From: Escherichia coli | GTDB taxonomy: Bacteria; Pseudomonadota; Gammaproteobacteria; Enterobacterales; Enterobacteriaceae | Length of the DNA: 64,000 nucleotides | Assembly: GCF_003018235.1 (NCBI RefSeq) | Contig: NZ_CP027437.1 | Reading direction: 5' to 3' (one strand) | Shown: positions 12,451 through 39,628 of the stretch, piece after piece | Numbering within the stretch: the stretch's first letter is position 1 | Layout: each line of letters begins with the position of its first letter | Made by a program: the position numbers and the translations under genes | Notes under the pieces: generated by a model | The model's database searches: none | What the model saw: only the letters and a program-made list of their open reading frames with translations | Told to the model about the DNA's origin: nothing

Positions 12451-12452
12451 GG

Positions 12453-13704: not shown

Positions 13705-14250
<546 letters not shown>

Positions 14251-14260
14251 TTAATTATTA

Positions 14261-15553: not shown

Positions 15554-15685
15554 CATATCTCCCTTATCTGGACCGATGGCCCACGATAATTTAGCAGAAT
15601 GTTAACAAACTAAAATACACAAAACTACCAGAACCCCGTGGCAACCGGTGCCTGATGTTGACCGTCGGAACAGTCAACATCGCGA

Positions 15686-16951: not shown

Positions 16952-17015
16952 TCTCGGTTTCCAAAAACTGTTCGCCTGTTACCCGCTCTCTTTCAAGCAA
17001 GGGAAACGCAGATGT

Positions 17016-17444: not shown

Positions 17445-17447
17445 GGC

Positions 17448-18541
<1,094 letters not shown>

Positions 18542-18690
18542 TTTACATCCCGGTAATGCAACAAAAGTTAGAGCTTTTAAACGCTGCTACTATACGCGCG
18601 CGATTGAGGTTTGGGAATGAGGGCAAGTTAAGGGAGCGTAAAAATTTATGGGCCTGGAGCGGCCCATAATTTTTTAAAGAGAATTCTGAT

Positions 18691-18984
18691 TTAAAAGAAG
18701 AAGAAAATCAGCCCGACAATGAGAACAATATCGGCAAGCAATGGGCAAAAAATCCCTTGCCAAAGAACCTTCTGCGGACGAAAGCCCACGCCGTGAATCA
18801 CACCAGCACAGACGGCCCACATCAGCAATAAACCATGCCAGATTTCCAGTTCACTGGTCTTCGCGGCGAAACGTGATGGGTCCCAAAACATACATCCTGC
18901 TAACAGAAGCGCCATCACGAAGGAAAGCGCCCGCAGGGGGCGCTTGTCCATTACCGCATACAAGGTTGCGATAATCTTACTCAT
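18691..18984 (-). CDS. ybgE: cyd operon membrane protein YbgE
   Basis: 97 aa hydrophobic protein downstream of cydX. Confidence 0.85.
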   Translation of the reverse strand: MSKIIATLYAVMDKRPLRALSFVMALLLAGCMFWDPSRFAAKTSELEIWHGLLLMWAVCAGVIHGVGFRPQKVLWQGIFCPLLADIVLIVGLIFFFF

Positions 18985-19097
18985 CAGATGTCTTCTTGAC
19001 CGGCTTTGCCTGATTCGACGTGCTCAAGCGCCAGCGCGGTGATTACCCCAAACGAACAGGCAAGAAGCGTTCCCAGAATCCATGCGAAATACCACAT
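18984..19097 (-). CDS. cydX: cytochrome bd-I oxidase accessory small subunit CydX (37 aa), not in ORF track
   Basis: Minus-strand translation MWYFAWILGTLLACSFGVITALALEHVESGKAGQEDI between cydB stop and ybgE start. Confidence 0.85.
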   Translation of the reverse strand: MWYFAWILGTLLACSFGVITALALEHVESGKAGQEDI

Positions 19098-19111
19098 TTT
19101 TAGCTCCTTAC

Positions 19112-20251: not shown

Positions 20252-20266
20252 TTGACGACTCCTGTC

Positions 20267-21835
20267 TTAGCGTGCCGGCTGAGTAGTCGTGGAAGACTGC
20301 TCAAAGTGATAGCGACCGGTTTTCAGGCTGCTTGGGCCGAGGCGTGCAAACTTGAACATTAAGAACAATTCTGCCACCAGGAACAGGGTATACAGGCCGC
20401 AAATCAGCACCATTGAGAAGATGAGATCGCCTGCGGTCAGTGACGAGTTCGCCACAGCTGTCGGCAGCACTTCACCGATAGCCCACGGTTGGCGGCCATA
20501 TTCAGCCACGAACCAGCCCGCTTCTACAGCAATCCACGGCAGCGGAATACCGTACAGCGCGGCGCGCAGCAGCCATTTTTTCTCGCCAATGCGGTTGCGG
20601 ATGACACTCCAGAAAGAGAGCGCGATGATTGCCAGCAGCAGGAAGCCACACGCAACCATGATACGGAACGCGAAGTACAGCGGCGCTACACGCGGAATGG
20701 AGTCTTTGGTTGCCTGTTGAATCTGCGCTTCAGTCGCATCAGCCACGTTTGGCGTATAGCGTTTCAGCAGCAGACCGTAACCGAGGTCTTTCTTCATGCT
20801 ATTGAACTGGTCACGAACCGCCTGGTCGGTAGAACCAGAACGCAGTTGCTCGAGCAGAGAGTACGCCTTCATCCCGTTACGAATGCGTTCTTCATGCTGC
20901 ACCATCAGTTCTTTCAGGCCGATAACTGGAGTATCCACGGAACGCGTTGCAATGATGCCCAGCGCGTAAGGGATCTGGATCGCAAATTTGTTCGTCTCCT
21001 CTTCCTGATCAGGAATGCCGAACAGAGTAAAGGCAGCAGGCGCAGGTTGCGTTTCCCACTCGGCTTCAATAGCAGCCAGTTTGGTTTTCTGCACGTCGCC
21101 CATTTCGTAACCAGATTCATCACCCAGAACAATAACAGACAGAACGGCAGCCATACCGAAGCTGGCAGCGATAGCAAAGGAGCGTTTAGCGAAGGCGAAG
21201 TCACGACCTTTCAGCATATACCATGCGCTGATACCGAGGATGAACATCGCGCCAGTCACATAACCAGACGCTACAGTGTGAACGAATTTCACCTGAGCAA
21301 CCGGGTTAAGCACCAGCTCGGAGAAGCTCACCATCTCCATACGCATAGTTTCAAAGTTGAAATCGGACGCGATTGGGTTTTGCATCCAGCCGTTCGCAAC
21401 CAGAATCCACAGTGCGGACAGGTTTGAACCGAGCGCCACCAGCCAGGTGACACACATATGCTGAACTTTACCCAGACGATCCCAACCGAAGAAGAACAGA
21501 CCTACAAAGGTGGATTCGAGGAAGAAGGCCATTAGACCTTCGATTGCCAGCGGCGCACCGAAGATATCCCCTACATAGTGGGAATAGTAAGACCAGTTAG
21601 TCCCGAACTGGAACTCCATGGTCAGACCGGTAGCCACACCCAGAGCGAAGTTGATACCAAACAACTTGCCCCAGAACTTGGTCATATCTTTATAAATCTG
21701 TTTGCCGGAAAGGACGTAGACCGTTTCCATAATGGCCAGCAGGAACGCCATACCGAGCGTCAGTGGCACAAAAAGGAAGTGGTACATCGCGGTCAAGGCA
21801 AACTGTAAGCGCGACAGTTCGACTATATCTAACAT
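20267..21835 (-). CDS. cydA: cytochrome bd-I ubiquinol oxidase subunit I
   Basis: 522 aa (start at second Met, [14 protein letters not shown]); synteny. Confidence 0.95.
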
Positions 21836-22172
21836 CATGACTCCTTGCTCATCGCATGAAGACTCCGAGAGTGAACCCCGTTAGAAAGGGTCACACGCAT
21901 GCCCCAATACAAAATTATTTGCTCGCCTCTATCGTTGCCATTTCATCAAAAGAGGAAAAGACAATGATAAAAAAGTTACAAATATGTTAATGAATAAACC
22001 AAATTGATCCCGTAATTATATTACGCCGCAAAATCCTTACAATAAACAGGTTTTTATTGAGCAAATTTGCATTTTTCGACAGTGATCAATTTATAGCGAA
22101 ATTGTCACGATCTCACCAATTTGATCTACGACAATTTATCGTGTTTTGCAGATTTTTTTCAAGAATTAAAAA

Positions 22173-22186
22173 TTGATTTATATCAA
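22173..22186. promoter_or_regulatory. FNR box in cydA upstream regulatory region
   Basis: TTGATTTATATCAA fits TTGAT-N4-ATCAA consensus about 340 bp upstream of cydA ATG; weaker TTGATctacGACAA at 22119–22132. Confidence 0.6.
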
Positions 22187-22640
22187 AACCAACCAAATAT
22201 GTTAATTATGTATAAACCATAGATCATTGGTGATTTTATTGTTAATTTATTGTGAAATATTTATGCAACACAATTATTACAATGAAAAGGTATAGATAAA
22301 AAACCAGTGTTTTATTTAACAGAACCGCCCTATCCACTTTTTATAATACCAATTGATTAGATTAGCCAATTTGTTGCTATTTTACATAACATATTTTTAT
22401 CAAAGTTAATTGATTGTTGCCTTTATGAGCACCGGCCGTAAGCCCGTTATGTTATTGTTTCATTAGTAATAATCACTTAAATGTATCGATGAAACAGGTA
22501 TGACTTAGCGGGAGTGATTGTTTCTGAGTGAACAGAGACCACTTTCGCCTGATAAATGAAAAATGAGCGATTTTTGCAAGTTAGTTTTTCTATAGCCGAG
22601 TACGCTCAGCGCCTCGCTTGATTACAATGAGGTTGCTGCT

Positions 22641-23585
22641 ATGAGTCCTGATAATATCAGTTCTGCTGTCAATCGCTTCTCAGGTTGGCCATCTAATGAT
22701 CCTCTAAAAACAGATAAAGAATCAATGACATCACCCATGACTGTGCAGGTAATAAAGATGATTGCCGCCATCCTTGATCCACATCGGATAGTCGTTGGAA
22801 TCGATACACTTTATACAACGCAGCGCGAAACATTTACCTCAGAGAGTCAACAGCTCATTGAATCAGCATTGCAAACACTTCATGTGATGAATTTAAATAA
22901 CCTGGAAACAAATCTCGATGAGGAAGGTCACTATCTGGCTTTTGGATATAACGTTGACACTCCTGACAGAATAACCGTTTCTGCTTATAATGAAAAAAAG
23001 CCTGGCTGCTATGGTCAATGTCTTTTAATACAGGATGACGAAACAGACTTATTTAACCTGATAAAAGTTAAAATTTTTGAAGCCAGGCATAATTATGTCG
23101 CTCAATTGATGAGCGATCCGGAATTTATGTTCAAATTTAGTTATAGCGCTCAACAAAATAGATTAGAACCTCATCTTCTGGTTCCCACTTATTTCCCTCT
23201 AAAAACAAACGAACCGGTTACGCAAGAGGATGTACTGTTACTTTATCGTTTCTTTAAAATGGATGGTGATTTTAATATATTAACATCAGATGAATACATG
23301 AGTATCATGACACCTCTGATGAAGTGTGAGCGCAGCATCCACGACCACAACAGGTATGTGACGGGCAAAGATACCCTTCTTCTGGACTATCCTCCTTCTG
23401 GTAACCAGATATATTTCCATATTTTTCCTGACGAATCAGCAACACTAGTCCTTTATTTTTCAAACAATGACATTGAATGTTTCGTCTTTGAAAGAGATAT
23501 TCCGAGCCAGTATCGCTTTTTCAAAATGTTTACCAATCTGGCACTGGTTATTGATCAGTTAACCGATGCCAATCAAATACTTTAA
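22641..23585 (+). CDS. hypothetical protein (314 aa), AT-rich, no recognisable motif
   Basis: Long ORF with low GC (about 35–39% by eye) relative to flanks; acidic; no similarity I can recall. Confidence 0.6.
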   Translation: MSPDNISSAVNRFSGWPSNDPLKTDKESMTSPMTVQVIKMIAAILDPHRIVVGIDTLYTTQRETFTSESQQLIESALQTLHVMNLNNLETNLDEEGHYLAFGYNVDTPDRITVSAYNEKKPGCYGQCLLIQDDETDLFNLIKVKIFEARHNYVAQLMSDPEFMFKFSYSAQQNRLEPHLLVPTYFPLKTNEPVTQEDVLLLYRFFKMDGDFNILTSDEYMSIMTPLMKCERSIHDHNRYVTGKDTLLLDYPPSGNQIYFHIFPDESATLVLYFSNNDIECFVFERDIPSQYRFFKMFTNLALVIDQLTDANQIL

Positions 23586-23665
23586 TTTTTATATATTCCC
23601 TGTGGCAAATATTGCCAAACAATGCCCGGGGATTAATTTTTATTACTCACGGAAAGATTTAAATA

Positions 23666-24088
23666 ATGATCCCATCTCAAATCTCTTTCAACACCCTTCC
23701 TGTCAATGCAACATACGCTTCAGAGACAACAGTTGACACACAAAAATTCTCTGACATCCTCTACTCAGCGGGGTGTTCCCTAAAGGATCTGGCTTATCTG
23801 AGCAGATGTCTGGCATCAATACATCCGACTATCGCCAAAAACATTTATGAAACAGAAAATCTCAGCGATCAAAAATTACTGCATATTGATTGCCGTAGTA
23901 CAAATGAAATCAAGATAAATATCTTTTTTGGTCAACAACGAGAAGGATTAATTGAAATTAATTCTGACACTGTCATTTTTCCGATATTGTCTTCATTAAT
24001 TGACTCCGCCATTTCTAAATTTCAACACCAAATCCCCGTTAACGGTTCAGTAAATCCTGACCTATTGTATGAGGATTATACTGATTAA
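23666..24088 (+). CDS. hypothetical protein (140 aa), AT-rich, acidic C-terminus
   Basis: ORF immediately downstream of the 314-aa ORF in same orientation and composition. Confidence 0.5.
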   Translation: MIPSQISFNTLPVNATYASETTVDTQKFSDILYSAGCSLKDLAYLSRCLASIHPTIAKNIYETENLSDQKLLHIDCRSTNEIKINIFFGQQREGLIEINSDTVIFPILSSLIDSAISKFQHQIPVNGSVNPDLLYEDYTD

Positions 24089-24634
24089 ATCCACCCAGTC
24101 GCGAAAATGGCCTGCGTTATTGCCAGACGTAATAAAACTTTTGATTAACGTTACTCGTACTGGTAGCACCTTCATGTACTTTTCTTTTTTACGAAAAATC
24201 AAAAGAGCTAACAAAGGTCATAATTCGCATGAATCATTAATTATTTGTTATTTTCAACATTATTTTTACATTAAGCAGAGATGAATTGCAGTGAAATTCG
24301 ACTTAACTTTTATGAAATGCATTTACTCATGGCTAAAGCCACGTCACAAAAATGCAAATTAGAAGTTGATCACAATTATCTCAATACATCAAATCAAGTT
24401 AATTTTAAAAATTTAACATTCATGACATTAGTTGACATAACACACTGAATTAAAATGAGAATTTGAAAACACACTTTAAACAATCATTTCCCGAAAGACA
24501 TTTTGAAAATAGATCAATTGCAACATTACGGTCAGATAAAGACACTCCTGTGATATTAAACCTGTGCCGTTATGAGCGGCCATAAATACGACGTGTGTAA
24601 CTTATTTTACTCTCTGTCTTACAAAGGATTACCC

Positions 24635-25084
24635 ATGAAGAAAGCAACACTTGTGATTGGCGTTATTGGCGCGGACTGCCATGCAGTAGGCAATAAAGTT
24701 CTGGACCGCGTTTTTAGCAACCATGACTTCAGAGTTATTAATCTGGGCGTAATGGTCAGCCAGGACGAATATATTGATGCTGCCATTGAAACTGGTGCTG
24801 ACGCGATTGTCGTCTCCTCTATCTATGGGCATGGCGATATCGATTGTCTGGGCATGCGCGAACGCTGCATCGAGCGTGGGCTGGGTAACATCCTGCTCTA
24901 TGTGGGCGGTAACCTGGTGGTCGGAAAACATGACTTCGCTGACGTGGAAACCAAGTTCAAAGAGATGGGATTTGATCGCGTCTTTTCCCCAAGTCATGAC
25001 TTAGAAGATGTTTGTCAGCTGATGGCCCACGATATCAACCAACGTCATAACGTTGATACTCGCATTCTTGAAGAGGCAATCTGA
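24635..25084 (+). CDS. glmS: glutamate mutase sigma (B12-binding) subunit
   Basis: 149 aa from [21 protein letters not shown]: canonical DxHxxG cobalamin-binding motif and strong similarity to clostridial MutS/GlmS; RBS AAAGGA. Confidence 0.88.
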
Positions 25085-26472
25085 TGCAAATCGTCTCTGT
25101 CGATATTGGTTCGACGTGGACCAAAGCAGCCCTCTTCACCCGGGAGGGGGACGCGTTAACGTTGGTTAACCACGTTCTGACCCCAACCACCACCCATCAT
25201 CTGGCGAAGGGGTTTTTCTCCAGCCTGGACCAGGTGTTAAACGTAGATGATGCCCTCCCCCTGTTAAACAGTGGTGAGGTTGCATTGAAGTATTCCTCCT
25301 CTGCCAAAGGTGGGCTGGCGGTTGCCGCAATGGGATTGGTGCCTTCTATCACCCTGGAAACCGCGAAAGTAACCGCTCACTCTGCGGGTGCTAAAATTGC
25401 GCAATATTACGCCTACAAGCTGAACCGCCGTGATATCCAGGCACTGGAAGAAACGCAGCCCGATATTCTCTTATTCACCGGCGGCACCGATGGCGGAGAA
25501 GAAAGCTACGGACTGAATAACGCCCGTGTGTTGGCAGAATCCAAACTCGACTGCGCCATTATTTATGCCGGAAACCGGGATATTCAGGACGAGGTGCAGG
25601 AGATCCTCGGGCATAAAGACCTGACCATCGTCGACAACATTCTGCCCGATCTTGACCATCCGAACCCTTTAGCCGCACGCCAGGCTATCTGCGACATATT
25701 CCTTAAACGCATCGTTAAAGGGAAAGGGATGGATGTCGTTGTTGATAAAACAGGCGAAGAACCAATGCCGACACCATGGACGGTCTTTGAACTGGTTAAG
25801 GCAATCAGTAACGTCGATCACAGCTGGAAAGAGTTCATGCTGATCGACATGGGCGGCGCAACCACCGATGTCTATTCCGCCTGTGCCAACACGCTCTCGC
25901 CCGACACTGTTTTACATGGCGTACCGGAACCCTTCGTGAAACGGACGGTGGAAGGCGATCTGGGAATGCGCGTCTCGGCAATGGTGGTTGGTGAAAGTGC
26001 GAAAGAGTTAGTCAATGTGAATTTTGCTCAGCAACCCGCACAGCTGGACGCTTTTTATCATTACCTCCGTCATCTAGTCGCTCATCCCGACTACTTACCC
26101 GCGAATGCAGAAGAAAAATATTTCGATACCATCCTGGCCGGACTGTGTGTGGGTTATGCCACCGAAAGACATGCGGGCACCAAAAAAGAGGTCTGCACCT
26201 GCGTCGGCAATGTCGATTTACAGATGGGACGTGACCTGACAACCGTGCGTAAAGTCGTGGGTTCCGGCGGATGGCTCTCGCGTGCCAGTCAGTTCGATAT
26301 GCATCACTGGTTGAAATACCGCGAGTTAAACGACGACGGTAAACGCATTCTCTTACCGACCGAATTTGAATATTACCGCGATTCCCGGGGGCTATTACCA
26401 CTGCTGGCAAACGTCGCCAGAGTCGATCCACTGGCCGCCGCGCGCACCAGTATTCAATGCTTAACCCTATAA
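25084..26472 (+). CDS. glmL: glutamate mutase accessory protein GlmL/MutL (actin/Hsp70-fold ATPase-like, putative reactivase)
   Basis: 462 aa, translationally coupled (ATG overlaps glmS stop); sits between S and E subunit genes as in Clostridium. Confidence 0.75.
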   Translation: MQIVSVDIGSTWTKAALFTREGDALTLVNHVLTPTTTHHLAKGFFSSLDQVLNVDDALPLLNSGEVALKYSSSAKGGLAVAAMGLVPSITLETAKVTAHSAGAKIAQYYAYKLNRRDIQALEETQPDILLFTGGTDGGEESYGLNNARVLAESKLDCAIIYAGNRDIQDEVQEILGHKDLTIVDNILPDLDHPNPLAARQAICDIFLKRIVKGKGMDVVVDKTGEEPMPTPWTVFELVKAISNVDHSWKEFMLIDMGGATTDVYSACANTLSPDTVLHGVPEPFVKRTVEGDLGMRVSAMVVGESAKELVNVNFAQQPAQLDAFYHYLRHLVAHPDYLPANAEEKYFDTILAGLCVGYATERHAGTKKEVCTCVGNVDLQMGRDLTTVRKVVGSGGWLSRASQFDMHHWLKYRELNDDGKRILLPTEFEYYRDSRGLLPLLANVARVDPLAAARTSIQCLTL

Positions 26473-26490
26473 CAATTAAGGCTGCAATCA

Positions 26491-27936
26491 ATGGAACTTC
26501 GAAATAAGAAATTAACCCATAACGAATTCATGACCGAGCGGCAACAGGTATTGAAAACCTGGGAAACCGGCAAGGATGTTGAAAACTTTGAAGATGGCGT
26601 TAAATACCAACAAACCATTCCTGAGCATAAACGCTTCTCTCTTGCCCTGCTGAAAGCAGACAAGGAAGGTAAAACTCTTAGCCAACCGCGCGCAGGCGTG
26701 GCGCTGATGGACGAACACATCGAACTACTGAAAACACTACAAGAAGAGTGCGATCTGCTGCCGAGCACCATCGATGCATATACCCGTCTGAATCGGTACG
26801 AAGAAGCTGCTGTAGGGATTAAAAAATCCATCGAAGCCGGAACCTCTAAACTGAACGGTTTACCGGTCGTTAACCACGGCGTCGCAGCTTGCCGTCGCCT
26901 CACCGAAACTCTGCAAAAACCGCTACAGATCCGCCACGGCACGCCAGATGCGCGTCTGCTGGCTGAAATCTCGATGGCCAGCGGCTTTACCAGTTATGAA
27001 GGCGGCGGCATTTCCTACAATATTCCGTATGCCAAGCGCGTAACGCTGGAAAAATCGATCCGCGACTGGCAGTACTGCGACCGTTTAATGGGGATGTATG
27101 AAGAACACGGGATCCGCATCAACCGCGAACCATTTGGCCCACTAACGGGTACGCTGATCCCGCCGTTTATCTCGCACTCTATCGCGATAATCGAAGGATT
27201 ACTGGCGCTGGAACAGGGTGTGAAATCTATCACCGTTGGTTATGGACAGGTCGGCAGCCTGACGCAGGATGTCGCGGCGATCCAGTCTCTGCGTGAACTT
27301 GCACACGAATACTTTCAGAACTATGGCTATACCGACTATGAATTAAGTACCGTATTTCACCAGTGGATGGGCGGCTTTCCGGAAGACGAATCGAAAGCGT
27401 TCGCCATTATCTCCTGGGGTGCAGCCGTCGCGGGGATGTCTGGTGCCACCAAAGTCATCACCAAAAGCCCTCACGAAGCCTGGGGAATCCCGACTGCCGC
27501 TGCCAACATTCAGGGGCTGAAAGCCTCCCGCCAGATGCTCAACATGGTCAATGAGCAGAAATTCCCGCCGTGCCCTGCGGTTGAACTGGAAATTGAACTG
27601 ATTAAGAGCGAGGTTCGCGCGGTACTGAATAAAGTGTTCGAACTGGGTAATGGTGATATTGCGCGCGGTACGGTGCTGGCATTTGAAGCGGGCGTACTGG
27701 ATGTGCCATTTGCACCAGCCGCGTGTAACGCGGGCAAAATTCTTCCGGTCCGTGACAACACCGGCGCGATACGCGTACTGGAAGCCGGAGCCGTTCCATT
27801 GCCAAAAGATATTCTCGACCTCCACCACGATTACGTTGCTGAACGCGCACGCTTTGAAGGACGCCAACCGACATTCCAGATGGTTGTAGATGACATCAAT
27901 GCTGTATCCCACAGTAAATTAATAGGAAGACCATAA
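26491..27936 (+). CDS. glmE: glutamate mutase epsilon (catalytic) subunit, methylaspartate mutase E chain
   Basis: 481 aa; N-terminus MELRNKKLTHNEF...QVLKTWETGKDV closely resembles clostridial GlmE/MutE. Confidence 0.88.
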   Translation: MELRNKKLTHNEFMTERQQVLKTWETGKDVENFEDGVKYQQTIPEHKRFSLALLKADKEGKTLSQPRAGVALMDEHIELLKTLQEECDLLPSTIDAYTRLNRYEEAAVGIKKSIEAGTSKLNGLPVVNHGVAACRRLTETLQKPLQIRHGTPDARLLAEISMASGFTSYEGGGISYNIPYAKRVTLEKSIRDWQYCDRLMGMYEEHGIRINREPFGPLTGTLIPPFISHSIAIIEGLLALEQGVKSITVGYGQVGSLTQDVAAIQSLRELAHEYFQNYGYTDYELSTVFHQWMGGFPEDESKAFAIISWGAAVAGMSGATKVITKSPHEAWGIPTAAANIQGLKASRQMLNMVNEQKFPPCPAVELEIELIKSEVRAVLNKVFELGNGDIARGTVLAFEAGVLDVPFAPAACNAGKILPVRDNTGAIRVLEAGAVPLPKDILDLHHDYVAERARFEGRQPTFQMVVDDINAVSHSKLIGRP

Positions 27937-29177
27937 TGAAAATAAAACAGGCCCTTTTTACCGCTGGCTACTCCTCATTCTATTTCGATGACCAGCAGGC
28001 GATAAAAAACGGAGCGGGTCACGACGGTTTTTTTTATACCGGGGAGCCAGTAACACAGGGGTTTAACGCCGTACGTCAGGCCGGGGAGTGCGTATCGGTA
28101 CAGTTGATTCTGGAAAACGGCGCGGTCGCCGTAGGTGACTGTGCTGCCGTACAGTATTCCGGGGCAGGTGGTCGCGATCCACTGTTCCTCGCGGAGCACT
28201 TTATTCCGTTCCTCAACGACCATATCAAGCCATTACTGGTAGGCCGCGATGTGGATACTTTCCTGCCGAATGCCCGTTTCTTCGACAAATTGCGTATTGA
28301 CGGCAACTTGCTGCATACCGCCGTGCGCTACGGATTATCACAGGCGCTGCTTGATGCTACCGCGCTGGCAACCGGCCGTCTGAAAACTGAAGTGGTCTGT
28401 GATGAATGGCAGTTGCCACGCGTGGCGGAATCCATTCCATTATTTGGTCAGAGCGGCGACGATCGATATATCGCCGTCGATAAGATGATCCTTAAGGGCA
28501 TCGACGTGCAGCCCCATGCACTGATTAATAACGTCGAAGAGAAACTGGGCTTTAAAGGTGAAAAACTGCGCGAATATGTCCGCTGGCTGTCGGATCGTAT
28601 TCTGAGCAAGCGCACCAGCGCACGCTACCACCCTACCCTGCACATCGATGTATACGGCACTATCGGTCTGATCTTCGATATGGATCCGCTTCGCTGTGCG
28701 CAATACATCGCCAGCCTGGAAAAAGAAGCGCAAGGCCTGCCGCTCTACATTGAAGGTCCGGTCGATGCCGGTAACAAGCCCGATCAAATTCGCCTGCTGA
28801 CCGCGATTACCAAAGAGCTGACGCGCCTCGGTTCCGGCGTGAAACTAGTGGCCGATGAATGGTGTAACACCTACCAGGATATTGTTGATTTCACCGATGC
28901 CGCCAGTTGCCACATGGTGCAAATCAAAACCCCGGATCTGGGCAGTATTCACAACATCGTCAATGCAGTTCTTTATTGCAACAGCCACAGCATGGAAGCG
29001 TACCAGGGCGGCACCTGCAATGAAACTGATGTCAGTGCCCGCACCTGTGTCCACGTCGCCCTTGCCGCTCGCCCCATGCGTATGCTGGTAAAACCAGGGA
29101 TGGGCTTTGACGAAGGCCTCGATATCGTCTTCAACGAAATGAATCGTACTATCGCGCTGTTGCAGGCTAAGGATTAA
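27936..29177 (+). CDS. mal: 3-methylaspartate ammonia-lyase (methylaspartase)
   Basis: 413 aa; enolase-superfamily motifs (FYFDDQ, AVQYSGAGGRDPLFLA) matching clostridial/Citrobacter MAL. Confidence 0.9.
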   Translation: MKIKQALFTAGYSSFYFDDQQAIKNGAGHDGFFYTGEPVTQGFNAVRQAGECVSVQLILENGAVAVGDCAAVQYSGAGGRDPLFLAEHFIPFLNDHIKPLLVGRDVDTFLPNARFFDKLRIDGNLLHTAVRYGLSQALLDATALATGRLKTEVVCDEWQLPRVAESIPLFGQSGDDRYIAVDKMILKGIDVQPHALINNVEEKLGFKGEKLREYVRWLSDRILSKRTSARYHPTLHIDVYGTIGLIFDMDPLRCAQYIASLEKEAQGLPLYIEGPVDAGNKPDQIRLLTAITKELTRLGSGVKLVADEWCNTYQDIVDFTDAASCHMVQIKTPDLGSIHNIVNAVLYCNSHSMEAYQGGTCNETDVSARTCVHVALAARPMRMLVKPGMGFDEGLDIVFNEMNRTIALLQAKD

Positions 29178-29180
29178 CAA

Positions 29181-30551
29181 ATGGCTCGTTCTTTTAAAGT
29201 CTTATCGCCAACGGCAATCCTCGGGTATGGATTCCCGGAGGAGAGCTTCCGCAAAGCGATGGCAGAATCGCCCGATCTGATCGCCGTTGATGCTGGCTCT
29301 TCCGATCCTGGCCCCCACTACCTCGGGGCGGGCAAACCGTTTACCGCTCGCGCAGGGGTCAAGCGCGATCTGCGCTATATGATCACCGCAGGCGTGCAAA
29401 ATAATATACCGGTGGTGATCGGAACGGCCGGCGGTTCTGGTGCCGCTCCACATCTGGAGTGGTGCCGAGAAATAATTCATGAGATTGCCCGGGAAGAGCA
29501 CCTCTCGTTCTCGATGGCGCTGATCCCGGCAGACGTTGACAAAGCTATCGTCCACCAGGCGCTGGATAACGGCAAAATCACGGCGCTGGATTTTGTCCCG
29601 CCGTTAACCCACGACGCGATTGACGAAAGTACGTATATCGTCGCGCAAATGGGCATCGAACCCTTCCAGCGGGCGCTGAAAGAAGGCGCGCAAGTGGTGC
29701 TGGGCGGGCGCGCTTACGACCCGGCCTGCTTTGCTGCGCTTCCGATCATGCAAGGCTTTGATGAAGGTCTGGCGCTGCATTGTGGGAAAATCCTTGAATG
29801 CGCGGCAATCGCCGCAACGCCCGGCTCAGGCTCTGACTGTGCGATGGGCATCATTGATGACAACGGCTTTACGCTGAAGACATTTAATCCGAAGCGTAAA
29901 TTTACCGAAACGTCAGCGGCTGCACACACACTGTATGAGAAATCCGATCCCTACTTCCTGCCTGGACCTGGCGGCGTGTTGAACCTGAAAGGCTGCACAT
30001 TTAAAGCGGTCAATGACAGCGAAGTGTACGTCAGCGGTTCTAAGCATGAAGAAACGCCGTATTCCCTGAAACTGGAAGGTGCGCGACGGGTGGGCTTCCG
30101 CTGTCTGACCATCGCCGGAACGCGCGACCCGATCATGATCGCCGGGATCGATAAAATCATCGATGAAGTCAAAACCAGCGTTTCGCGTAACCTGTCGCTC
30201 GACGATGACAGCATTCACATCAATTTCCACCTGTACGGCAAAAACGGGGTGATGGGCGACCATGAACCGATGCAAACTGCCGGGCATGAGCTGGGGATTG
30301 TCCTAGATGTAGTTGCGCCGACCCAGGAGATTGCCAACAGCGTTTGCTCGCTGGTGCGCTCTACTATGCTGCACTACGGCTATGAAAACCGCATCGCTAC
30401 CGCAGGCAACCTGGCGTTCCCGTTCTCCCCTTCTGATATCCAGGGCGGGCCAGTATACGAATTTTCCATATATCACCTGATTGAAGCCAACGACGCTCTG
30501 CGTTTTGATTTCCATATTGAACAGGTGACGCCAGAAGGAGTTCAGGCATGA
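29181..30551 (+). CDS. conserved protein of unknown function, AtuA-like N-terminal part (DUF1446-type)
   Basis: 456 aa soluble protein; domain assignment from memory, not verified. Confidence 0.55.
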   Translation: MARSFKVLSPTAILGYGFPEESFRKAMAESPDLIAVDAGSSDPGPHYLGAGKPFTARAGVKRDLRYMITAGVQNNIPVVIGTAGGSGAAPHLEWCREIIHEIAREEHLSFSMALIPADVDKAIVHQALDNGKITALDFVPPLTHDAIDESTYIVAQMGIEPFQRALKEGAQVVLGGRAYDPACFAALPIMQGFDEGLALHCGKILECAAIAATPGSGSDCAMGIIDDNGFTLKTFNPKRKFTETSAAAHTLYEKSDPYFLPGPGGVLNLKGCTFKAVNDSEVYVSGSKHEETPYSLKLEGARRVGFRCLTIAGTRDPIMIAGIDKIIDEVKTSVSRNLSLDDDSIHINFHLYGKNGVMGDHEPMQTAGHELGIVLDVVAPTQEIANSVCSLVRSTMLHYGYENRIATAGNLAFPFSPSDIQGGPVYEFSIYHLIEANDALRFDFHIEQVTPEGVQA

Positions 30552-30865
30552 AACAGTCAATTGTCTCACTGGCGCAAGTCATTCGTTCGAAAAATGCCGG
30601 ACCTTACGAACTGGTTTTAGATATTTTATTTAAAACGAAAGAAAACTATGAGCGAGTTAAATCATCAGGGCAATTAACCCCAGAACTGATCGCGCGCTTA
30701 TATCATGTTGAACCTGACTTTATTCATCGTATTGTCTGGTTTGATCCTTCTAACGCAGTAAAAATCGTCATGCCACGAGATATTATCTCCGGGAATGTAG
30801 GTGACAATGATGTCTATGGCGCACAGCAACATGCACCTTTATTAAATATGAGTTTCGATTTGTAA
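30548..30865 (+). CDS. small conserved protein, AtuA-like C-terminal part (DUF4387-type)
   Basis: 105 aa; start overlaps upstream stop (ATGA), suggesting a two-subunit pair. Confidence 0.5.
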   Translation: MKQSIVSLAQVIRSKNAGPYELVLDILFKTKENYERVKSSGQLTPELIARLYHVEPDFIHRIVWFDPSNAVKIVMPRDIISGNVGDNDVYGAQQHAPLLNMSFDL

Positions 30866-30948
30866 AAATCCGAACACTTTTAGCCAACTGACATCCCGTC
30901 ACTTATTGCAGTTCAACACTTCAGCTATTTGTAAGGTTGTAATAGCAG

Positions 30949-30980
30949 GTAGATGCCTGAATCTCTATTCGGGCATCTAC
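30949..30980 (+). other. stable hairpin between AtuA-like pair and transporter gene
   Basis: Perfect 9-bp stem GTAGATGCC/GGCATCTAC followed by T-rich stretch. Confidence 0.45.
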
Positions 30981-31025
30981 TTCTCCTGATTCTGATTTAT
31001 CGCGGTGCACCTGATGGAGGAAAAA

Positions 31026-32306
31026 ATGAAGAAAATAAGTTTAACCACGATGATTCTTTTGGCGCTCGTACTTGGAATGATTATCGGCGTAGTGCTCAAT
31101 AACACTGCTTCACCGGAAACCGCAAAACTCTATGCGCAAGAAATATCGATATTCACGACGATTTTCTTACGACTGATAAAAATGATTATCGCTCCGTTAG
31201 TGGTCTCTACCCTGGTGGTAGGTATAGCTAAAATGGGAGATGCCAAAGCCCTTGGTCGTATTTTTTCTAAAACACTCTTTTTATTTATTTGCGCCTCATT
31301 GCTGTCAATTGCCTTAGGCTTGATAACAGTAAATTTCTTCATGCCAGGCACAGGAATTAATTTTGTTGCACACGGAGCCGAAACCACCGGAGTGGTCGCA
31401 TCAGAACCCTTTACGCTAAAAGTATTTATTTCGCATGCTTTCCCCACCAGCATTGTCGATGCCATGGCGCACAATGAAATTTTGCAAATCGTAGTGTTCT
31501 CAATTTTCCTCGGCTGTAGCCTGACGGCGATTGGCGAGAAAGGCAGCGCCATCGTTCACGCCTTAGATTCGCTGGCACATGCCATGTTAAAGCTCACTGG
31601 CTACGTCATGCTCTTCGCTCCCCTGACCGTATTCGCTGCTATTTCAGCATTGATTGCTGAACGAGGACTGGCAGTTATGGTGAGCGCCGGGATCTTTATG
31701 GGTGAATTTTATTTCACCATGTTATTACTTTGGGTGCTGCTTATCGGTCTGGCCATCGTTTATGTCGGCCCCTGCATCAGACGCCTGACCCGCGCCCTTT
31801 CGGAACCCGCTCTGCTGGCATTTACCACATCCAGTTCTGAAGCGGCTTTTCCGGGAACGCTTGAAAAACTGGAGCAATTTGGCGTTTCCCCCAAAATTGC
31901 CAGCTTTGTCTTACCCATTGGCTACTCATTTAATCTCGTTGGATCAATGGCCTACTGCTCCTTCGCCACAGTTTTCATCGCCCAGGCCTGCAATATCCAT
32001 TTATCCATCGGTGAGCAAATCACCATGCTGTTGATCCTGATGTTGACCTCGAAAGGAATGGCTGGCGTACCACGCGCCTCAATGGTGGTTATCGCCGCCA
32101 CGCTCAACCAGTTCAATATTCCGGAAGCGGGGCTGATCTTGCTGATGGGCGTTGATCCGTTCCTTGATATGGGGCGTTCCGCGACAAACGTCATGAGCAA
32201 CGCAATGGGCGCTGCGATGGTGAGTCGGTGGGAAGGCGAACATTTCGGCGAGGGTTGTCGGGGTAAAGCATTAAAACCCAATGAATCGAACGTTGCTCTG
32301 CCCTGA
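31026..32306 (+). CDS. dicarboxylate/amino acid:cation symporter (DAACS family, GltP/DctA-like)
   Basis: About 426 aa polytopic protein with GltP/DctA-type motifs; RBS GGAGG before ATG at 31026. Confidence 0.8.
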   Translation: MKKISLTTMILLALVLGMIIGVVLNNTASPETAKLYAQEISIFTTIFLRLIKMIIAPLVVSTLVVGIAKMGDAKALGRIFSKTLFLFICASLLSIALGLITVNFFMPGTGINFVAHGAETTGVVASEPFTLKVFISHAFPTSIVDAMAHNEILQIVVFSIFLGCSLTAIGEKGSAIVHALDSLAHAMLKLTGYVMLFAPLTVFAAISALIAERGLAVMVSAGIFMGEFYFTMLLLWVLLIGLAIVYVGPCIRRLTRALSEPALLAFTTSSSEAAFPGTLEKLEQFGVSPKIASFVLPIGYSFNLVGSMAYCSFATVFIAQACNIHLSIGEQITMLLILMLTSKGMAGVPRASMVVIAATLNQFNIPEAGLILLMGVDPFLDMGRSATNVMSNAMGAAMVSRWEGEHFGEGCRGKALKPNESNVALP

Positions 32307-32413
32307 GGGGGATCTTAAGCAATCAGAAGCCAATGACTACGCATTTTTATAAGCCGGATCATGAAGTTAGACGGCAATTAAGTAACACTAACGTTTAAGG
32401 TGAAAAGTGAAAT

Positions 32414-34065
32414 ATGTCCAAACCATTTATCTGGCAAGAACCGTTTCTACAAAATAAAGACGGTACAGAATATACATTAATTAGCGATCAACATATTACA
32501 GTAACGGAATTAGACGGCGAAGAAGTGATAAAAATCGCTCCTGAAGCATTAACGCTGCTTGCCCGGCAGGCATTTTATGAAGCCTCTTTTTTCTTACGTT
32601 CCGCTCATTTGCAACAGGTCGCCAGCATTCTTAACGATCCGCAGGCCAGTAGTAATGATAAATACGTTGCGTTGCAGTTATTACGTAATGCTGAAGTCTC
32701 AGCAAAAGGGGTATTACCCAACTGTCAGGATACCGGCACCGCAACTATTGTTGCCAGTAAAGGGCAACAGATATGGACGGGAGGTAACGACGCTGAAGCC
32801 TTAAGCAAAGGCATTTACAGTACTTTCCAGGAAAATAATCTGCGCTTTTCACAAAATGCGCCGCTGGATATGTATACCGAAGTCAATACGCAAACCAATC
32901 TCCCGGCGCAGATTGATATCAGCGCTGTCGCTGGTAATGAGTACCATTTTCTCTGTGTTAATAAAGGGGGCGGCTCCGCCAATAAAGCCGCACTTTATCA
33001 GGAAACCAAATCCTTATTGCAACCAGAAAAACTGACCGCATTTTTAATCGAAAAAATGAAATCGCTGGGCACCGCTGCCTGCCCGCCTTACCACATCGCC
33101 TTTGTCGTCGGAGGGCTTTCAGCCGATCAAACCTTAAAAGTTGCCAAGCTGGCCTCTACGAAATATTACGACAATTTGCCCACCAGCGGAAACGAGCAGG
33201 GACAAGCATTCCGTGATATTGAGCTGGAAAAAGTGTTGCTCGAGGTCAGTCAGCAATTTGGTATTGGTGCGCAATTTGGGGGTAAATATTTCGCTCATGA
33301 TATTCGCGTCATTCGTCTGCCGCGTCACGGTGGCTCTTGCCCGATAGCTATGGCGCTCTCCTGTTCTGCCGATCGCAATATCAAAGCAAAAATTAACAAG
33401 CACGGTATCTGGCTGGAAAAACTCGAACACAATCCGGGGCAATATATTCCAGCCTCACTGCGGGAAGAAAATCACGCGCAACATGTACAACTGGATCTAA
33501 ACCGTCCGTTGCGTGACGTGATGCAGGATCTCGCCAGATTACCGGTAGGCACCCGCGTGTCGTTAAGTGGTCCCATCGTAGTGGCACGCGATATCGCCAC
33601 GCCAAAATAAAAGCGCGGCTGGATAACGCCGAACCGATGCCGGATTACCTGAAGCATCATATTGTCTATTACGCTGGCTCGGCGAAAACACCGGAGAACA
33701 TGGCCTGCGGTTCACTGGGTCCAACCACGGGCGGTCGAATGGACGGTTATGTCGATACCTTCCAGGCGGCTGGCGGCAGTCTGGTGATGTTATCGAAAGG
33801 TAACCGCAGCCAGCAGGTCACCGATGCCTGTCACAAACATGGTGGCTTCAATCTGGGTAGTATTGGCGGTGCAGCTGCGTTACTGGCGCAAGAATATGTC
33901 AAAAGTCTGCGTTGCCTGGAATACCCGGAGCTGGGTATGGAAGCGGTGTGGATGATGGAAGTGGAAAATCTGCCCGCATTCATCCTGGTAGATGATAAAG
34001 GCAATAATTTCTTTAGTCAGTTTGAGCAGCAACACCGCTGCGCCAGTTGCCCTGCGGGACATTAA
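32414..34065 (+). pseudogene. fumD: class I fumarate hydratase family (FumD-type mesaconase), interrupted by apparent 1-bp deletion near 33595
   Basis: ORFs 32414..33610 and 33637..34065 are N- and C-terminal parts of one FumA-like protein; C-part frame reads ...[20 protein letters not shown] continuously upstream, offset one base from ...[11 protein letters not shown]. Confidence 0.75.
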
Positions 34066-34074
34066 GGAAAATGA

Positions 34075-34677
34075 ATGGAAGCGCGAATTTCAACTGAACG
34101 GCATGTGCAGCGCCAGCAGAAATTGAAGGAACAGGTCGATACGCGCATCGCGGCGGCGATAGAGAAAAAAGGGATTTTGATTGTTTTCACCGGCAATGGC
34201 AAAGGGAAATCCACTGCCGCGTTTGGTACTGTGACGCGCGCGGTGGGTCATGGCAAAACGGTGGGGGTTGCGCAGTACATCAAGGGGCAATGGGACAACG
34301 GCGAATACAACCTTCTCCAGCCGCTGGGGGTTGAGTTTCATATTATGGGAACCGGTTTTACCTGGGAGACACAGAACCGGCAAGCGGATATCGACGCGGC
34401 GAAAGAGGTCTGGTCGGAAAGCAAACGGATGCTGGCTGACAAGCGTTACGACTTAGTGGTGCTTGATGAGCTGACCTATATGCTGGCTTACCATTATCTG
34501 GATACCGAAGAAGTGATCGCTTCTCTGCAAAACCGCCCGGCACAACAAAGTGTCATTGTCACCGGACGCGGTTGCCACAGTCAGATATTAAAAATGGCGG
34601 ATACGGTCAGCGAAATCCGCCCCGTCAAACATGCTTTTGATAACGGCATTCAGGCCCAGCCGGGTATCGACTGGTAA
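34075..34677 (+). CDS. cob(I)alamin/cob(I)yrinic acid a,c-diamide adenosyltransferase (BtuR/CobA paralog)
   Basis: 200 aa; P-loop GNGKGKSTAAFG and strong similarity to E. coli BtuR. Confidence 0.85.
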   Translation: MEARISTERHVQRQQKLKEQVDTRIAAAIEKKGILIVFTGNGKGKSTAAFGTVTRAVGHGKTVGVAQYIKGQWDNGEYNLLQPLGVEFHIMGTGFTWETQNRQADIDAAKEVWSESKRMLADKRYDLVVLDELTYMLAYHYLDTEEVIASLQNRPAQQSVIVTGRGCHSQILKMADTVSEIRPVKHAFDNGIQAQPGIDW

Positions 34678-34680
34678 TAA

Positions 34681-34712
34681 CTGCGCCTGGCATCCCGCCA
34701 GGCGCAGGTTTT
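34681..34712. terminator. bidirectional terminator between adenosyltransferase gene and LysR gene
   Basis: Hairpin CTGCGCCTGG(catcccg)CCAGGCGCAG followed by TTTT. Confidence 0.6.
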
Positions 34713-35616
34713 ACATCTCCTGCGGTACAACCGATTTCGCCAGCAACCATTCACGAAATTGCTGCAAGTGCGGTGAGTCAGACTTCTCTTCCTGCCACGT
34801 CATAATAAAACGATTACCGGTACGAATAGGCACATCACAGGGGATCACCATATCGCCACTATCCAAATCATGTTGAATAGCGAAACGTGGTAACAGCGCC
34901 ACGCCGAGATTAGAGCGCACGGCGGCAATCAGCATTGAAAGCAAATCGAAACGTGGTCCGTTGTTGACCAGCGGACTGCTAACGCCAGATAAGGCAAACC
35001 ACTCTTCCCAGCCAGTAATACGGGTACTTTGATGCAGAAGTGGTAACTCTGTAAGCAGTTCTGCCACTGACAGTTTTTGATCGGACATTGCAAGCAAACT
35101 GCCGCTGCATACCGGCAAAATCTCCTCATCAAAGAGATATTCTACTTCCGCCCAGGGCGCGCAAAAATTTTCGCGCATAATGACAGCATCGTACTCCCGA
35201 TTAAGAAAATCGCCGTTATTAGCTAAAGAGTGAATATTAACAATAATATCGGGATGTAACTTTGTGAATTCATGTAAATTTGGGATTAACCAGTGGGTAC
35301 TAAACGTAGGATTCACGGCAAGTTCAATAACCTGAACCGTAGGCTGCCAGGTCATAATGGTATTGGTATCGCGTTCCAGCTTATTTAATGTTTCTTTTAC
35401 TATCCCCAGGTAATACTTCCCTGCATCATTAAGAAAAATACGTTTTTTAGAGTGTGAAAATAACGGAGTATGTAAAAATTCCTCCAGCGCACTCACTTGT
35501 CTGAATACTGCACTTTGGGTCAACGCTAACTCCTCTGCCGCTTTGGTATAACTTTCATGACGTGCGACGACCTCAAAAGTCACCAGCAGCTCCGTTTTAG
35601 GTATTTTTCCTCGCAT
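34711..35616 (-). CDS. LysR-family transcriptional regulator
   Basis: 301 aa; N-terminal HTH (TKAAEELALTQSAVFRQVSALE) and LysR substrate-binding domain. Confidence 0.85.
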   Translation of the reverse strand: MRGKIPKTELLVTFEVVARHESYTKAAEELALTQSAVFRQVSALEEFLHTPLFSHSKKRIFLNDAGKYYLGIVKETLNKLERDTNTIMTWQPTVQVIELAVNPTFSTHWLIPNLHEFTKLHPDIIVNIHSLANNGDFLNREYDAVIMRENFCAPWAEVEYLFDEEILPVCSGSLLAMSDQKLSVAELLTELPLLHQSTRITGWEEWFALSGVSSPLVNNGPRFDLLSMLIAAVRSNLGVALLPRFAIQHDLDSGDMVIPCDVPIRTGNRFIMTWQEEKSDSPHLQQFREWLLAKSVVPQEM

Positions 35617-36182
35617 AATGCCGTCCCTTAAAAATAGTTTAAACCATCAAAAATACATTACTTATTACGAAGTAATGGTAACCAAAGCAGCAATAAATAA
35701 TTTATAAGAATCATGATTGACATTTATAACCCAGTAAGCCTGGCGTGACAAATATCTTAATCAGATAATAATAATCCGAAAAGCACAGCGCCTTTCGAAT
35801 TATCCGGAATCACATTAAGTGAAAATTATTAAATTGATATCATTTATCATATCTGTGGATATTATGATAAACAATCAACAAAGATTTTATTTTTGATTTA
35901 TAGCATATCCCTCTAAGAATTTTTGCGATGCTGCAATATCCGGGGTAAAGACCCGATCCTGGCTGACAAATGGCACGACTTGACGATAAGCGGTGAACAT
36001 CGCTTTTGTTGATTTACTTAACGCTACGGTCAAACGCTGGGAAGCCAGTGCATCAGGTAACGATTCGAAATTCGCCGTCGTTCTTATTCGTGGCTTGCGG
36101 TCGGTTGCGGCAATCCACAGTGGCTGTGGTCATGCAGTCAAGCCAGCGGTCAGATTTCGACCGTGGTTAACATTTAAGGCAT

Positions 36183-36281
36183 AAAAAAGGCCATCATACG
36201 ATGGCCAACCATGTCGAAACCGACAGCCCTTCGCCATTCCTGTAGAGGGAAGCGGCGAGGGCTATTTCTTATTACAGATAT
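36183..36281 (-). ncRNA. sdhX: probable 3'-UTR-derived sRNA SdhX (RybD) with intrinsic terminator
   Basis: Region directly after sucD stop ends in hairpin GGCCATCGTATGATGGCC plus U-run on minus strand; identity by position, not sequence match. Confidence 0.45.
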
Positions 36282-37151
36282 TTATTTCAGAACAGTTTTC
36301 AGTGCTTCACCGATATCCGCCAGGCTGCGAACGGTTTTCACGCCTGCGGCTTCCAGAGCAGCGAATTTCTCATCCGCAGTCCCTTTACCACCGGCAATGA
36401 TGGCACCCGCGTGGCCCATACGTTTGCCTTTCGGCGCAGTCACACCAGCGATGTAACCCACAACAGGCTTGGTAACGTGCTCTTTGATGTACGCAGCCGC
36501 TTCTTCTTCAGCGCTACCGCCGATCTCACCGATCATCACGATCGCTTCGGTCTGCGGATCTTTTTCGAACATTTCGAGGATGTCGATAAAGTTAGAGCCA
36601 GGGATCGGGTCGCCGCCGATACCGACACAGGTCGACTGACCGAAACCGTAATCCGTGGTCTGTTTAACCGCTTCATAGGTCAGTGTACCGGAACGGGAAA
36701 CGATACCCACTTTACCCGGTTTGTGAATGTGACCAGGCTGGATACCGATTTTGCATTCACCCGGAGTGATAACGCCTGGGCAGTTCGGGCCGATCATACG
36801 AACGCCAGCTTCGTCCAGTTTCACTTTCACAGTCAGCATATCCAGCGTCGGGATGCCTTCAGTGATGGTGATAATCAGTTTGATGCCTGCATCAATAGCT
36901 TCCAGAATGGAGTCTTTGCAGAACGGTGCTGGTACGTAGATAACAGAAGCGGTAGCGCCAGTAGCAGCAACAGCTTCACGCACGGTGTTGAACACCGGCA
37001 GGCCGAGGTGGGTGGTGCCGCCTTTACCTGGGGTTACGCCGCCAACCATTTTAGTGCCGTATGCAATGGCCTGTTCTGAGTGGAAAGTCCCCTGGCTACC
37101 GGTAAAGCCCTGGCAGATAACCTTGGTGTTTTTATCAATTAAAATGGACAT
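36282..37151 (-). CDS. sucD: succinyl-CoA synthetase alpha subunit
   Basis: 289 aa; CoA-binding motifs. Confidence 0.95.
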
Positions 37152-38317
37152 TATTTCCCCTCCACTGCGGCAACAACCTGCTGAGCTGCATCCGTCAGAC
37201 CTTTTGCTGCAATAATATTCAGGCCGCTGTCAGCCAGTTTCTTCGCGCCGAGTTCGGCGTTGTTACCTTCCAGACGTACCACGACCGGTACGTTAACACC
37301 CACTTCCGCTACCGCGCCGATGATACCGTCAGCGATCAGGTCGCAACGAACGATACCGCCGAAGATGTTAACCAGAACGGCTTTCACTTTGTCGTCAGAG
37401 AGGATGATTTTGAACGCTTCGGTTACACGTTCTTTGGTTGCGCCGCCGCCAACGTCAAGGAAGTTAGCTGGTTCGCCGCCGTGCAGTTTAACGATGTCCA
37501 TCGTACCCATCGCCAGACCTGCGCCGTTAACCATACAACCGATGTTACCGTCCAGCGCAACGTAGTTCAGTTCCCACTGTGCAGCCTGTGCTTCACGTGG
37601 ATCTTCCTGCGACTGGTCACGCATTTCGCGCAGATCAGGCTGGCGGAACAGTGCGTTGCCATCAGCGCCCAGTTTGCCGTCGAGGCAAATCAGATCGCCC
37701 TGTTTGGTGATGACCAGCGGGTTGATTTCGATCAGCGCCAGGTCGCGCTCCAGGAAAATGGTCGCCAGGCCCATGAAGATTTTGGTGAACTGCTGAACCA
37801 GTTTACCTTCCAGACCCAGTTTGAACGCCAGCTCGCGTCCCTGATACGGCATCGGGCCAGTCAGCGGATCAAGCGCAACTTTGTGGATCAGGTGCGGAGT
37901 TTCTTCCGCCACTTTTTCGATTTCCACGCCGCCTTCGGTGGAGGCCATAAAGACCACACGACGGGAACTACGGTCAACAACGGCACCGAGATACAGCTCT
38001 TTAGCGATATCGGTCGCTGCTTCAACCAGAATCTGGTTAACCGGTTGGCCATTGGCATCTGTTTGATACGTTACCAGACGCTTGCCCAGCCAGTTTTCTG
38101 CAAAAGCACGGATGTCTTCTTTGCTGTTTACAACTTTCACACCGCCCGCTTTACCGCGGCCACCAGCGTGAACCTGACATTTCACTACCCACGGACCGGC
38201 ACCGATTTTTGAAGCGGCTTCTTCTGCTTCGCGCGGAGTAGTACAGGCATAACCCACCGGTGCTGGTAAGCCATAGCGGGCAAAAAGTTGTTTTGCCTGA
38301 TATTCATGTAAGTTCAT
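37151..38317 (-). CDS. sucC: succinyl-CoA synthetase beta subunit
   Basis: 388 aa; ATP-grasp. Confidence 0.95.
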
Positions 38318-38410
38318 GTGTTCTGTCCATCCTTCAGTAATCGTTATCTTTTAAACCGTAGACCGACACCCTATCCACGTCGGTCTACAGTGCAGGTGAA
38401 GCTTAAACTA

Positions 38411-39628
38411 CTACACGTCCAGCAGCAGACGCGTCGGATCTTCCAGCAACTCTTTGATCGTTACCAGGAAGCCCACGGATTCGCGACCATCGATCAGACG
38501 GTGATCGTAGGACAGCGCCAGGTACATCATCGGCAGGATCTCAACCTGACCATTCACCGCCATCGGACGATCTTTGATAGCGTGCATACCCAGAATTGCG
38601 CTCTGCGGCGGGTTGATGATCGGCGTAGACATCAGGGAACCGAACACACCACCGTTGGTGATGGTGAAGTTACCACCGGTCAGATCTTCAACCGTCAGCT
38701 TGCCGTCACGGCCTTTAACTGCCAGCTCTTTGATTTTCTTCTCGATGTCTGCCATGCCTAGGGTATCGACATCACGCAGTACCGGCGTCACCAGGCCGCG
38801 CGGCGTAGAAACCGCCATGCTGACGTCGAAATAGTTGTGGTAAACCACATCATCGCCGTCGATAGACGCGTTCACTTCCGGGTAACGTTTCAGGGCTTCA
38901 ACCACCGCTTTCACGTAGAAGGACATAAAGCCCAGACGAATACCGTGACGTTTTTCAAACGCTTCACCGTACTGCTTACGCAGATCCATAATCGGCTTCA
39001 TGTTGACTTCGTTGAACGTGGTCAGCATAGCGGTGGAGTTTTTCGCTTCCAGCAGACGCTCTGCCACACGCTTACGCAGGCGAGTCATCGGCACACGTTT
39101 TTCGCTACGTGCAGCCAGAGCCGGTTGCGCCGCCGGAGCAGCCGCTGCCGGAGCAGACTCTTTCGCCGGGGCTTTCGCCAGATGTTTTTCCACATCTTCA
39201 CGAGTCAGACGACCACCCACACCGGTGCCTTTAATGGCGCTGGCGTCGAGGTTGTGTTCAGCCAGCAGGCGACGGATCGCCGGGCTTAACGCATCGTTGT
39301 TTTGCTCTTCCAGAGACGCCTGCTGGCGTTGCGCCGGAGTGGACGCTTTCTCTTCAGATTTGGCGCTGGTTTCTTTACCGGCGCTGTTGCCTTCACGCAG
39401 GCGACCAAGGATCTGACGAGACGTTACCGTTGTACCTTCATCTTCCAGAACCGCATCCAGAATGCCGTCTGCTGATGCCGGTACTTCCAGTACCACTTTG
39501 TCAGTTTCGATTTCTACCAGCACTTCATCACGTACGACTGCGTCGCCGGGTTTTTTATGCCAGGTTGCGACGGTGGCATCGGCTACGGATTCAGGCAGGT
39601 CAGGGACCAGAATATCTACGCTACTCAT
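38411..39628 (-). CDS. sucB: 2-oxoglutarate dehydrogenase E2 (dihydrolipoyl succinyltransferase)
   Basis: 405 aa; lipoyl domain, Ala/Pro linker, catalytic DHRLIDG motif. Confidence 0.95.

Follow-up and report, generated by a model that had tools for sequence, protein, structure and literature searches.

The window analysed here is a 64,000-nucleotide stretch of Escherichia coli DNA (contig NZ_CP027437.1) in which the sucD coding sequence occupies 36282..37151 on the minus strand (289 aa; stop codon TAA at 36284..36282 according to the list of open reading frames). It is the last gene of sdhCDAB-sucABCD, and the 3' end of its mRNA is the precursor of the small RNA SdhX. The operon is intact upstream of sdhX, in a region 98.3-99.2% identical to E. 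coli references, with reading frames of K-12 size for sucC (388 aa), sucB (405), sucA (933), sdhB (238), sdhA, sdhD (115) and sdhC (134). Identity to K-12 is 98.3-98.9% for sucD and its flanks, and sucD is annotated in the matching genomes. The sucB-sucC intergenic region is 93 nt long in the window (38318..38410) versus about 275 nt in K-12 (L001 1741..2014), where there are about 195 extra bases.

The 99 nt directly after the sucD stop codon (36281..36183, minus strand) read AUAUCUGUAAUAAGAAAUAGCCCUCGCCGCUUCCCUCUACAGGAAUGGCGAAGGGCUGUCGGUUUCGACAUGGUUGGCCAUCGUAUGAUGGCCUUUUUU. In K-12 MG1655, the annotation gives a ncRNA gene sdhX (b4764, "small regulatory RNA SdhX"), 101 nt in length, at NC_000913.3 765050..765150, its first base being the base next to the sucD stop. 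Window positions 36183..36281 align on the minus strand to NC_000913.3 765050..765148, which is sdhX nt 1-99, with identity at 99 of 99 positions and with the terminator present, so the proposal of the initial annotation that SdhX is made from the sucD 3' UTR at this site is supported. That annotation had marked nt 1-99; the full-length form, taken as 101 nt from K-12, spans 36181..36281 and is identical to K-12 at 100 of 101 positions; K-12 has G at nt 100 where the window has A, and both have U at nt 101. On sequence comparison it is very highly probable that 36181..36281 on the minus strand is the sdhX gene, coinciding with the sucD 3' UTR, and nothing in the sequence of the window counts against this identification. 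The RNA is one already characterised in E. coli, in a known accessory-gene context, and knowledge of SdhX itself is unchanged.

SdhX is an sRNA that depends on Hfq and is released by RNase E from the roughly 10-kb sdhCDAB-sucABCD mRNA (Miyakoshi et al., PMC6393394); in Salmonella, an RNase E ts mutant served to demonstrate its biogenesis by processing (PMC6393394). Our statements about function in E. coli rest on that work and on the K-12 annotation. A search for promoter-like sites near the 5' end of sdhX returned none, the nearest, some 420 nt upstream, being a weak match (9/12) in a scan whose total count was at chance level; the lack of a convincing promoter before sdhX fits biogenesis by processing.

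Of the 5,426 complete RefSeq E. coli genomes, 5,425 match a 1.2-kb query taken from around the site. The 99-nt segment is likewise found in 5,425 of 5,426, with identity of at least 99% in 4,069 genomes, 95-99% in 1,350 and lower in 7. RefSeq/PGAP shows no feature over sdhX in 23 of the 25 matches listed, all non-K-12 E. coli, and an overlapping rtcB gene in the other two. Rfam 15 returned no SdhX match, either for the whole window at gathering score or for 35800..36500 at E <= 10, where only chance-level matches appeared (isrD at 17 bits, the best overlap, covering the terminator only, and tmRNA at 7 bits). Because the accepted K-12 sRNA gene has the identical sequence and yet yields no Rfam match, Rfam probably contains no SdhX model, and the missing match is uninformative, supporting SdhX neither for nor against. 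With no PGAP annotation and apparently no Rfam model, sdhX can be labelled here only by homology to K-12, and the practical value of the result lies in annotation.

Terminator and RNA folding

The 99 nt end in a Rho-independent terminator whose coordinates and hairpin had been given exactly by the initial annotation. The hairpin, GGCCAUC-GUAU-GAUGGCC at 36206..36189 on the minus strand, was returned by the terminator scan as well as by folding, and has a 7-bp stem with five G-C pairs and a 4-nt loop. Its predicted fold of -12.7 kcal/mol (z = -5.1) was equalled by none of 200 shuffles. A run of six U (36188..36183) follows directly, and then A and U, so that the seven-U run first reported is one base too long. 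This U6 tract forms the terminator tail and, on the basis of PMC6393394, is presumed to be the Hfq-binding 3' end. The generic terminator scan of 35000..37500 found three sites where 2.6 were expected, which is chance level; as the scan does no better than chance, identification of the RNA rests on its identity to K-12.

The 99 nt as a whole fold at -40.8 kcal/mol (z = -4.4), and none of 200 shuffles did as well. A 5' stem-loop formed by nt 19-57 (36225..36263, minus strand), in the E. coli-specific variable part of the RNA, appears in both the minimum free energy and the centroid structures. The seed is predicted to be fully single-stranded in the 38-nt 3' form; in the full-length fold, a weak 4-bp hairpin takes in part of it. 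Termination efficiency and the exact 3' end in this strain are assumed to be as in K-12, and only assumed, because the base after U6 differs (A versus G) and the downstream DNA is unrelated to that of K-12.

Seed, targets and function

The published SdhX seed, UUCGACAUGGU, is located close to the terminator on its 5' side; the core of the seed, CGACAU, is complementary to codons 1-2 of ackA (PMC6393394). The seed is present in the window as published, at nt 64-74 (36218..36208, minus strand), where it pairs with the ackA start codon: positions -2 to +8 of ackA (CCAUGUCGAG) form ten contiguous pairs with SdhX nt 64-73, taking in the start codon and a UCG second codon. Repression of fdoG in E. 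coli needs G62, numbered from the end of the sucD coding sequence (PMC6393394). Within the seed region of the window (36208..36220, minus strand), G62 (36220) together with GUUUCGACAU pairs with fdoG; positions -22 to -13 (AUGUCGAAAC) form ten Watson-Crick base pairs with SdhX nt 62-71, with G62 opposite C-13. Repression of katG in E. coli needs C34, in the variable upstream part of the RNA, as validated by compensatory mutation (PMC6393394). The corresponding stretch GCUUCCCUCUACAG, nt 29-42 (36240..36253, minus strand, with C34 at 36248), forms 14 contiguous pairs, one of them G.U, with katG -20 to -7 (CUGUAGAGGGGAGC) in the Shine-Dalgarno region. These pairings were found by a search for contiguous complementarity against K-12 target leaders, which recovered the published duplexes. 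Folding of the 99-nt SdhX against 90-nt target regions with duplexfold was set aside, as it gave over-extended duplexes that 87 to 127 of 300 shuffled targets matched in quality.

Among matching E. coli genomes, the 60-nt target regions are at least 99% identical to K-12 in 5,421 of 5,424 for ackA, 5,405 of 5,424 for fdoG and 5,425 of 5,425 for katG, a threshold that over 60 nt allows at most a terminal mismatch. As these regions are nearly invariant in the species, the strain from which the window comes almost certainly carries all three. With all published elements and target sites kept, SdhX should work here as it does in K-12. An interruption is seen elsewhere in the species: in strain FDAARGOS_944 (L006 3073..3880), an IS1 lies inside the SdhX seed, at a point equivalent to 36209..36217 of the window, with a 9-bp duplication of UCGACAUGG-equivalent DNA. 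The element splits the sucD 3' UTR from its terminator and constitutes a natural disruption of sdhX.

The sequence, position, strand, terminator, seed and target complementarity observed here are the same as those of the K-12 gene. K-12 SdhX (RybD) shares with the window nt 1-99, the C34 stretch, G62, the seed, the hairpin and U6; it differs at nt 100 (A here, not G) and in what lies downstream, where K-12 has a convergent mngR and the window has a relic of rtcB, a LysR-type regulator and a gene cluster. Salmonella SdhX1 (87 nt) and SdhX2 (38 nt) resemble it in their origin from the sucD 3' UTR, the core seed CGACAU, the layout of terminator and U-tail, and the model of RNase E processing (PMC6393394). 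Salmonella SdhX, however, has U in place of E. coli G62 and is without the katG-pairing region, and it targets fumB and yfbV, whereas E. coli SdhX does not (PMC6393394). By its sequence, the window carries the E. coli version in every respect. CpxQ (from cpxP) and NarS (from narK) are alike in that an operon terminator serves as the Hfq module, the RNA is released by RNase E and the seed lies just upstream of the terminator, but their parent mRNAs, seeds and targets differ; the likeness is one of mechanism and implies no family membership.

Published work on the identical sequence leads us to expect RNase E processing, Hfq binding and repression of AckA in vivo in this strain. The roughly 10-kb sdhCDAB-sucABCD transcript would end at the hairpin-U6 terminator; a cut by RNase E near the sucD stop codon would release an RNA of about 100 nt, and a second cut within the 3' UTR a form of about 38 nt. 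Hfq would bind the terminator and U-tail, leaving the single-stranded seed to pair with the start and second codons of ackA and block translation, so that high expression of the TCA-cycle operon would bring acetate kinase down. In E. coli, G62 would lengthen the seed pairing and bring fdoG under repression, and the stretch around C34 would pair with the Shine-Dalgarno sequence of katG. Repression of this kind would tie expression of the TCA-cycle operon to acetate, formate and peroxide metabolism.

Could the region instead act only in cis, stabilising sucD mRNA and insulating the LysR-type gene downstream, with no role as a trans-acting RNA? A terminator would be needed here in any case, since that gene (35616..34711) runs in the direction of sucD, and Salmonella has less SucD protein when the entire 3' UTR is deleted (PMC6393394), which means that the UTR also has a cis role. 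Cis and trans roles are compatible, however, and the sequence is identical to that of an RNA for which experiments in E. coli have shown repression of ackA, fdoG and katG through base pairing; in this species the SdhX target sites are essentially invariant. Moreover, conservation of the region across enterobacteria is confined to the seed and the U-tract (PMC6393394), a pattern that a simple terminator would not need. We therefore judge a purely cis-acting region to be very improbable and retain the reading as SdhX.

Regulation of the neighbouring cluster by SdhX was considered and rejected, because gene starts in 22641..35616 offer at most eight pairs to nt 58-75, most of those G.U. In this cluster, fumD starts with AUGUCC, as against the AUGUCG that makes Salmonella fumB a target. 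Two further matches, each away from a translation start, are probably due to chance: a 14-nt same-sense copy of SdhX nt 61-74 in the cydB mRNA (20161..20174, minus strand) and a 12-nt perfect complement to nt 59-70 in the coding interior of galT (2980..2991, plus strand).

The variable segment beyond the terminator

Divergence from K-12 begins one base after the U-run, BLAST reaching on to 36175-36179 over a few scattered matches; on the far side the window becomes homologous to K-12 again at 22211, some 370 nt upstream of cydA. Between these points K-12 has 5.9 kb, comprising mngR, mngA and mngB, and the window has about 14 kb, the variable segment at 22212..36182 (delimited by BLAST against K-12 and strain Ch1, Ch1 RefSeq annotation and open reading frames). 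Since mngR-mngAB is absent and the 14-kb segment stands in its place, the event is a replacement and not an insertion into a K-12-like locus. The initial annotation had put an island junction just beyond the RNA; its position holds, but what it took for an insertion replaces mngR-mngAB and has about 100 nt of rtcB relic at its edge. Neither direct repeats nor att-like sites were found flanking 22212..36182. An 18-nt inverted match at 89% between the terminator (36193..36210) and 22683..22700 was dismissed as chance, there being about 30 other chance pairs of equal quality.

The segment contains a LysR-type regulator gene (34711..35616, minus strand), co-directional with sucD, and, convergent to it, a glutamate-fermentation cluster at 22641..34677 on the plus strand, read from open reading frames and the Ch1 annotation. 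Its genes are two hypothetical genes, glmS, glmL, and genes for the glutamate mutase E subunit, methylaspartate ammonia-lyase, AtuA/DUF1446 and DUF4387 proteins and a dicarboxylate symporter, followed by fumD (class I fumarase) and cobO. A glutamate-fermentation (fumD/methylaspartate) cluster has been described for O157:H7 and other pathogenic enterobacteria (Kronen and Berg 2015, PMC4682846). Glutamate mutase, methylaspartate ammonia-lyase and class I fumarase are found together here, accompanied by a dicarboxylate transporter, a cob(I)alamin adenosyltransferase and a LysR regulator. The cluster genes are annotated in Ch1, to which 18669..34680 of the window is 99.1% identical, and the start of FumD, MSKPFIWQ, agrees with the published cloning primer (PMC4682846). 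Relative to Ch1, fumD (32414..34065, plus strand) has a 1-nt deletion near 33597 (gene position 1184) that breaks it into reading frames of 398 and 142 aa; fumD is then a pseudogene, unless the frameshift arose as a sequencing error. The convergent cobO and LysR-type genes have between them an 18-nt inverted repeat (34674..34714; 89% complementary, 5-nt gap), probably a bidirectional terminator that both genes share.

Next to the SdhX terminator, positions 36084..36184 on the plus strand are what remains of a convergent RtcB-family gene at its 3' end, recognised by protein and DNA homology to strain IMT16316; the TAA stop codon of this relic (36182..36184) shares two bases with the SdhX U-run, the last two U. 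A 63-aa reading frame at 35993..36184 (plus strand) ends in PAVRFRPWLTFKA, its last 15 aa matching the C-terminus of the 465-aa IMT16316 RtcB-family protein at 13 of 15 positions. DNA homology to the rtcB arrangement covers 36143..36182 and 36084..36140, with about 175 nt of rtcB missing between the two blocks by comparison with IMT16316. The first 100 nt or so past the terminator are thus a decayed rtcB 3' end, and cluster-specific DNA starts only about 100 nt beyond the terminator. The relic suggests that the glutamate-fermentation cluster arrived in an rtcB-type locus and not in one of the K-12 type.

This bears on whether the region might be protein-coding, through the 63-aa frame, an 81-aa frame that runs antisense to sucD (36211..36456), or a "hypothetical protein" placed by RefSeq between sucD and the LysR-type gene in some genomes. 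Both frames do appear in the list of open reading frames, and strain 118UI, like many other genomes, has an 84-aa hypothetical coding sequence annotated about 40 nt past the terminator. The 63-aa frame, however, is a gene fragment, since only its last 15 aa resemble anything, namely an RtcB-family C-terminus, and the 81-aa frame is antisense to a highly conserved coding sequence. The hypothetical frame of the 118UI type lies outside 36183..36281; by manual reading about 26 codons of it are left in the window, and the list holds no minus-strand frame of at least 60 aa at that site. A coding role thus has next to no probability, and the region is best read as sdhX.

The sucD-cydA interval holds at least four alternative cassettes in E. 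coli. By queries spanning the junction, the mngR-mngAB arrangement occurs in 3,867 of 5,426 genomes, that of the window with its glutamate-fermentation cluster in 835, an arrangement with a TPR pseudogene, as in Nissle 1917, in 547, and one with an RtcB-family gene and hut genes in 297; there is a slight overlap among these counts, since a query can attain 80% coverage even with its sdhX part unmatched. Common to all four is sdhX, and divergence begins 1-3 nt after U6. All SdhX elements are untouched by the different downstream gene content of this strain, which, with very different DNA beside sucD, would keep the SdhX link from the TCA-cycle operon to acetate kinase, formate dehydrogenase O and catalase. 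That variable DNA sets in no more than 1-3 bases past the sRNA in the four arrangements compared would neatly illustrate how selection can keep a 3' UTR regulator intact down to its last functional nucleotide.

About 570 nt separate the SdhX terminator from the LysR-type regulator of the cluster, which lies downstream and is co-directional with sucD. The 3' end of sdhX might be the fixed left edge of a multi-allelic replacement hot spot, with read-through that could couple the LysR regulator to transcription of the TCA operon, a proposal we consider speculative and unlikely; such coupling is absent in K-12, where the neighbouring mngR is convergent. Mildly new would be the sdhX 3' end as the fixed edge of a four-way variable locus, with a co-directional regulator within reach of possible read-through.

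Other observations concern related strains and more distant parts of the window. Ch1 is identical to the window over 35400..36600, and it carries two IS200/IS605 copies (L002 22069..22527 and 38748..39206), one beside the LysR gene and one after ybgE, both of which the window lacks. Over positions 1..25000, the best complete-genome match to the window has 99.2% identity. In the same part, Rfam identified the CpoB/ybgF thermometer (142 bits; 13666..13804, minus strand) and a tRNA array with RtT elements (11573..12739, minus strand), the usual content of the tol-pal and lysT-valT region.
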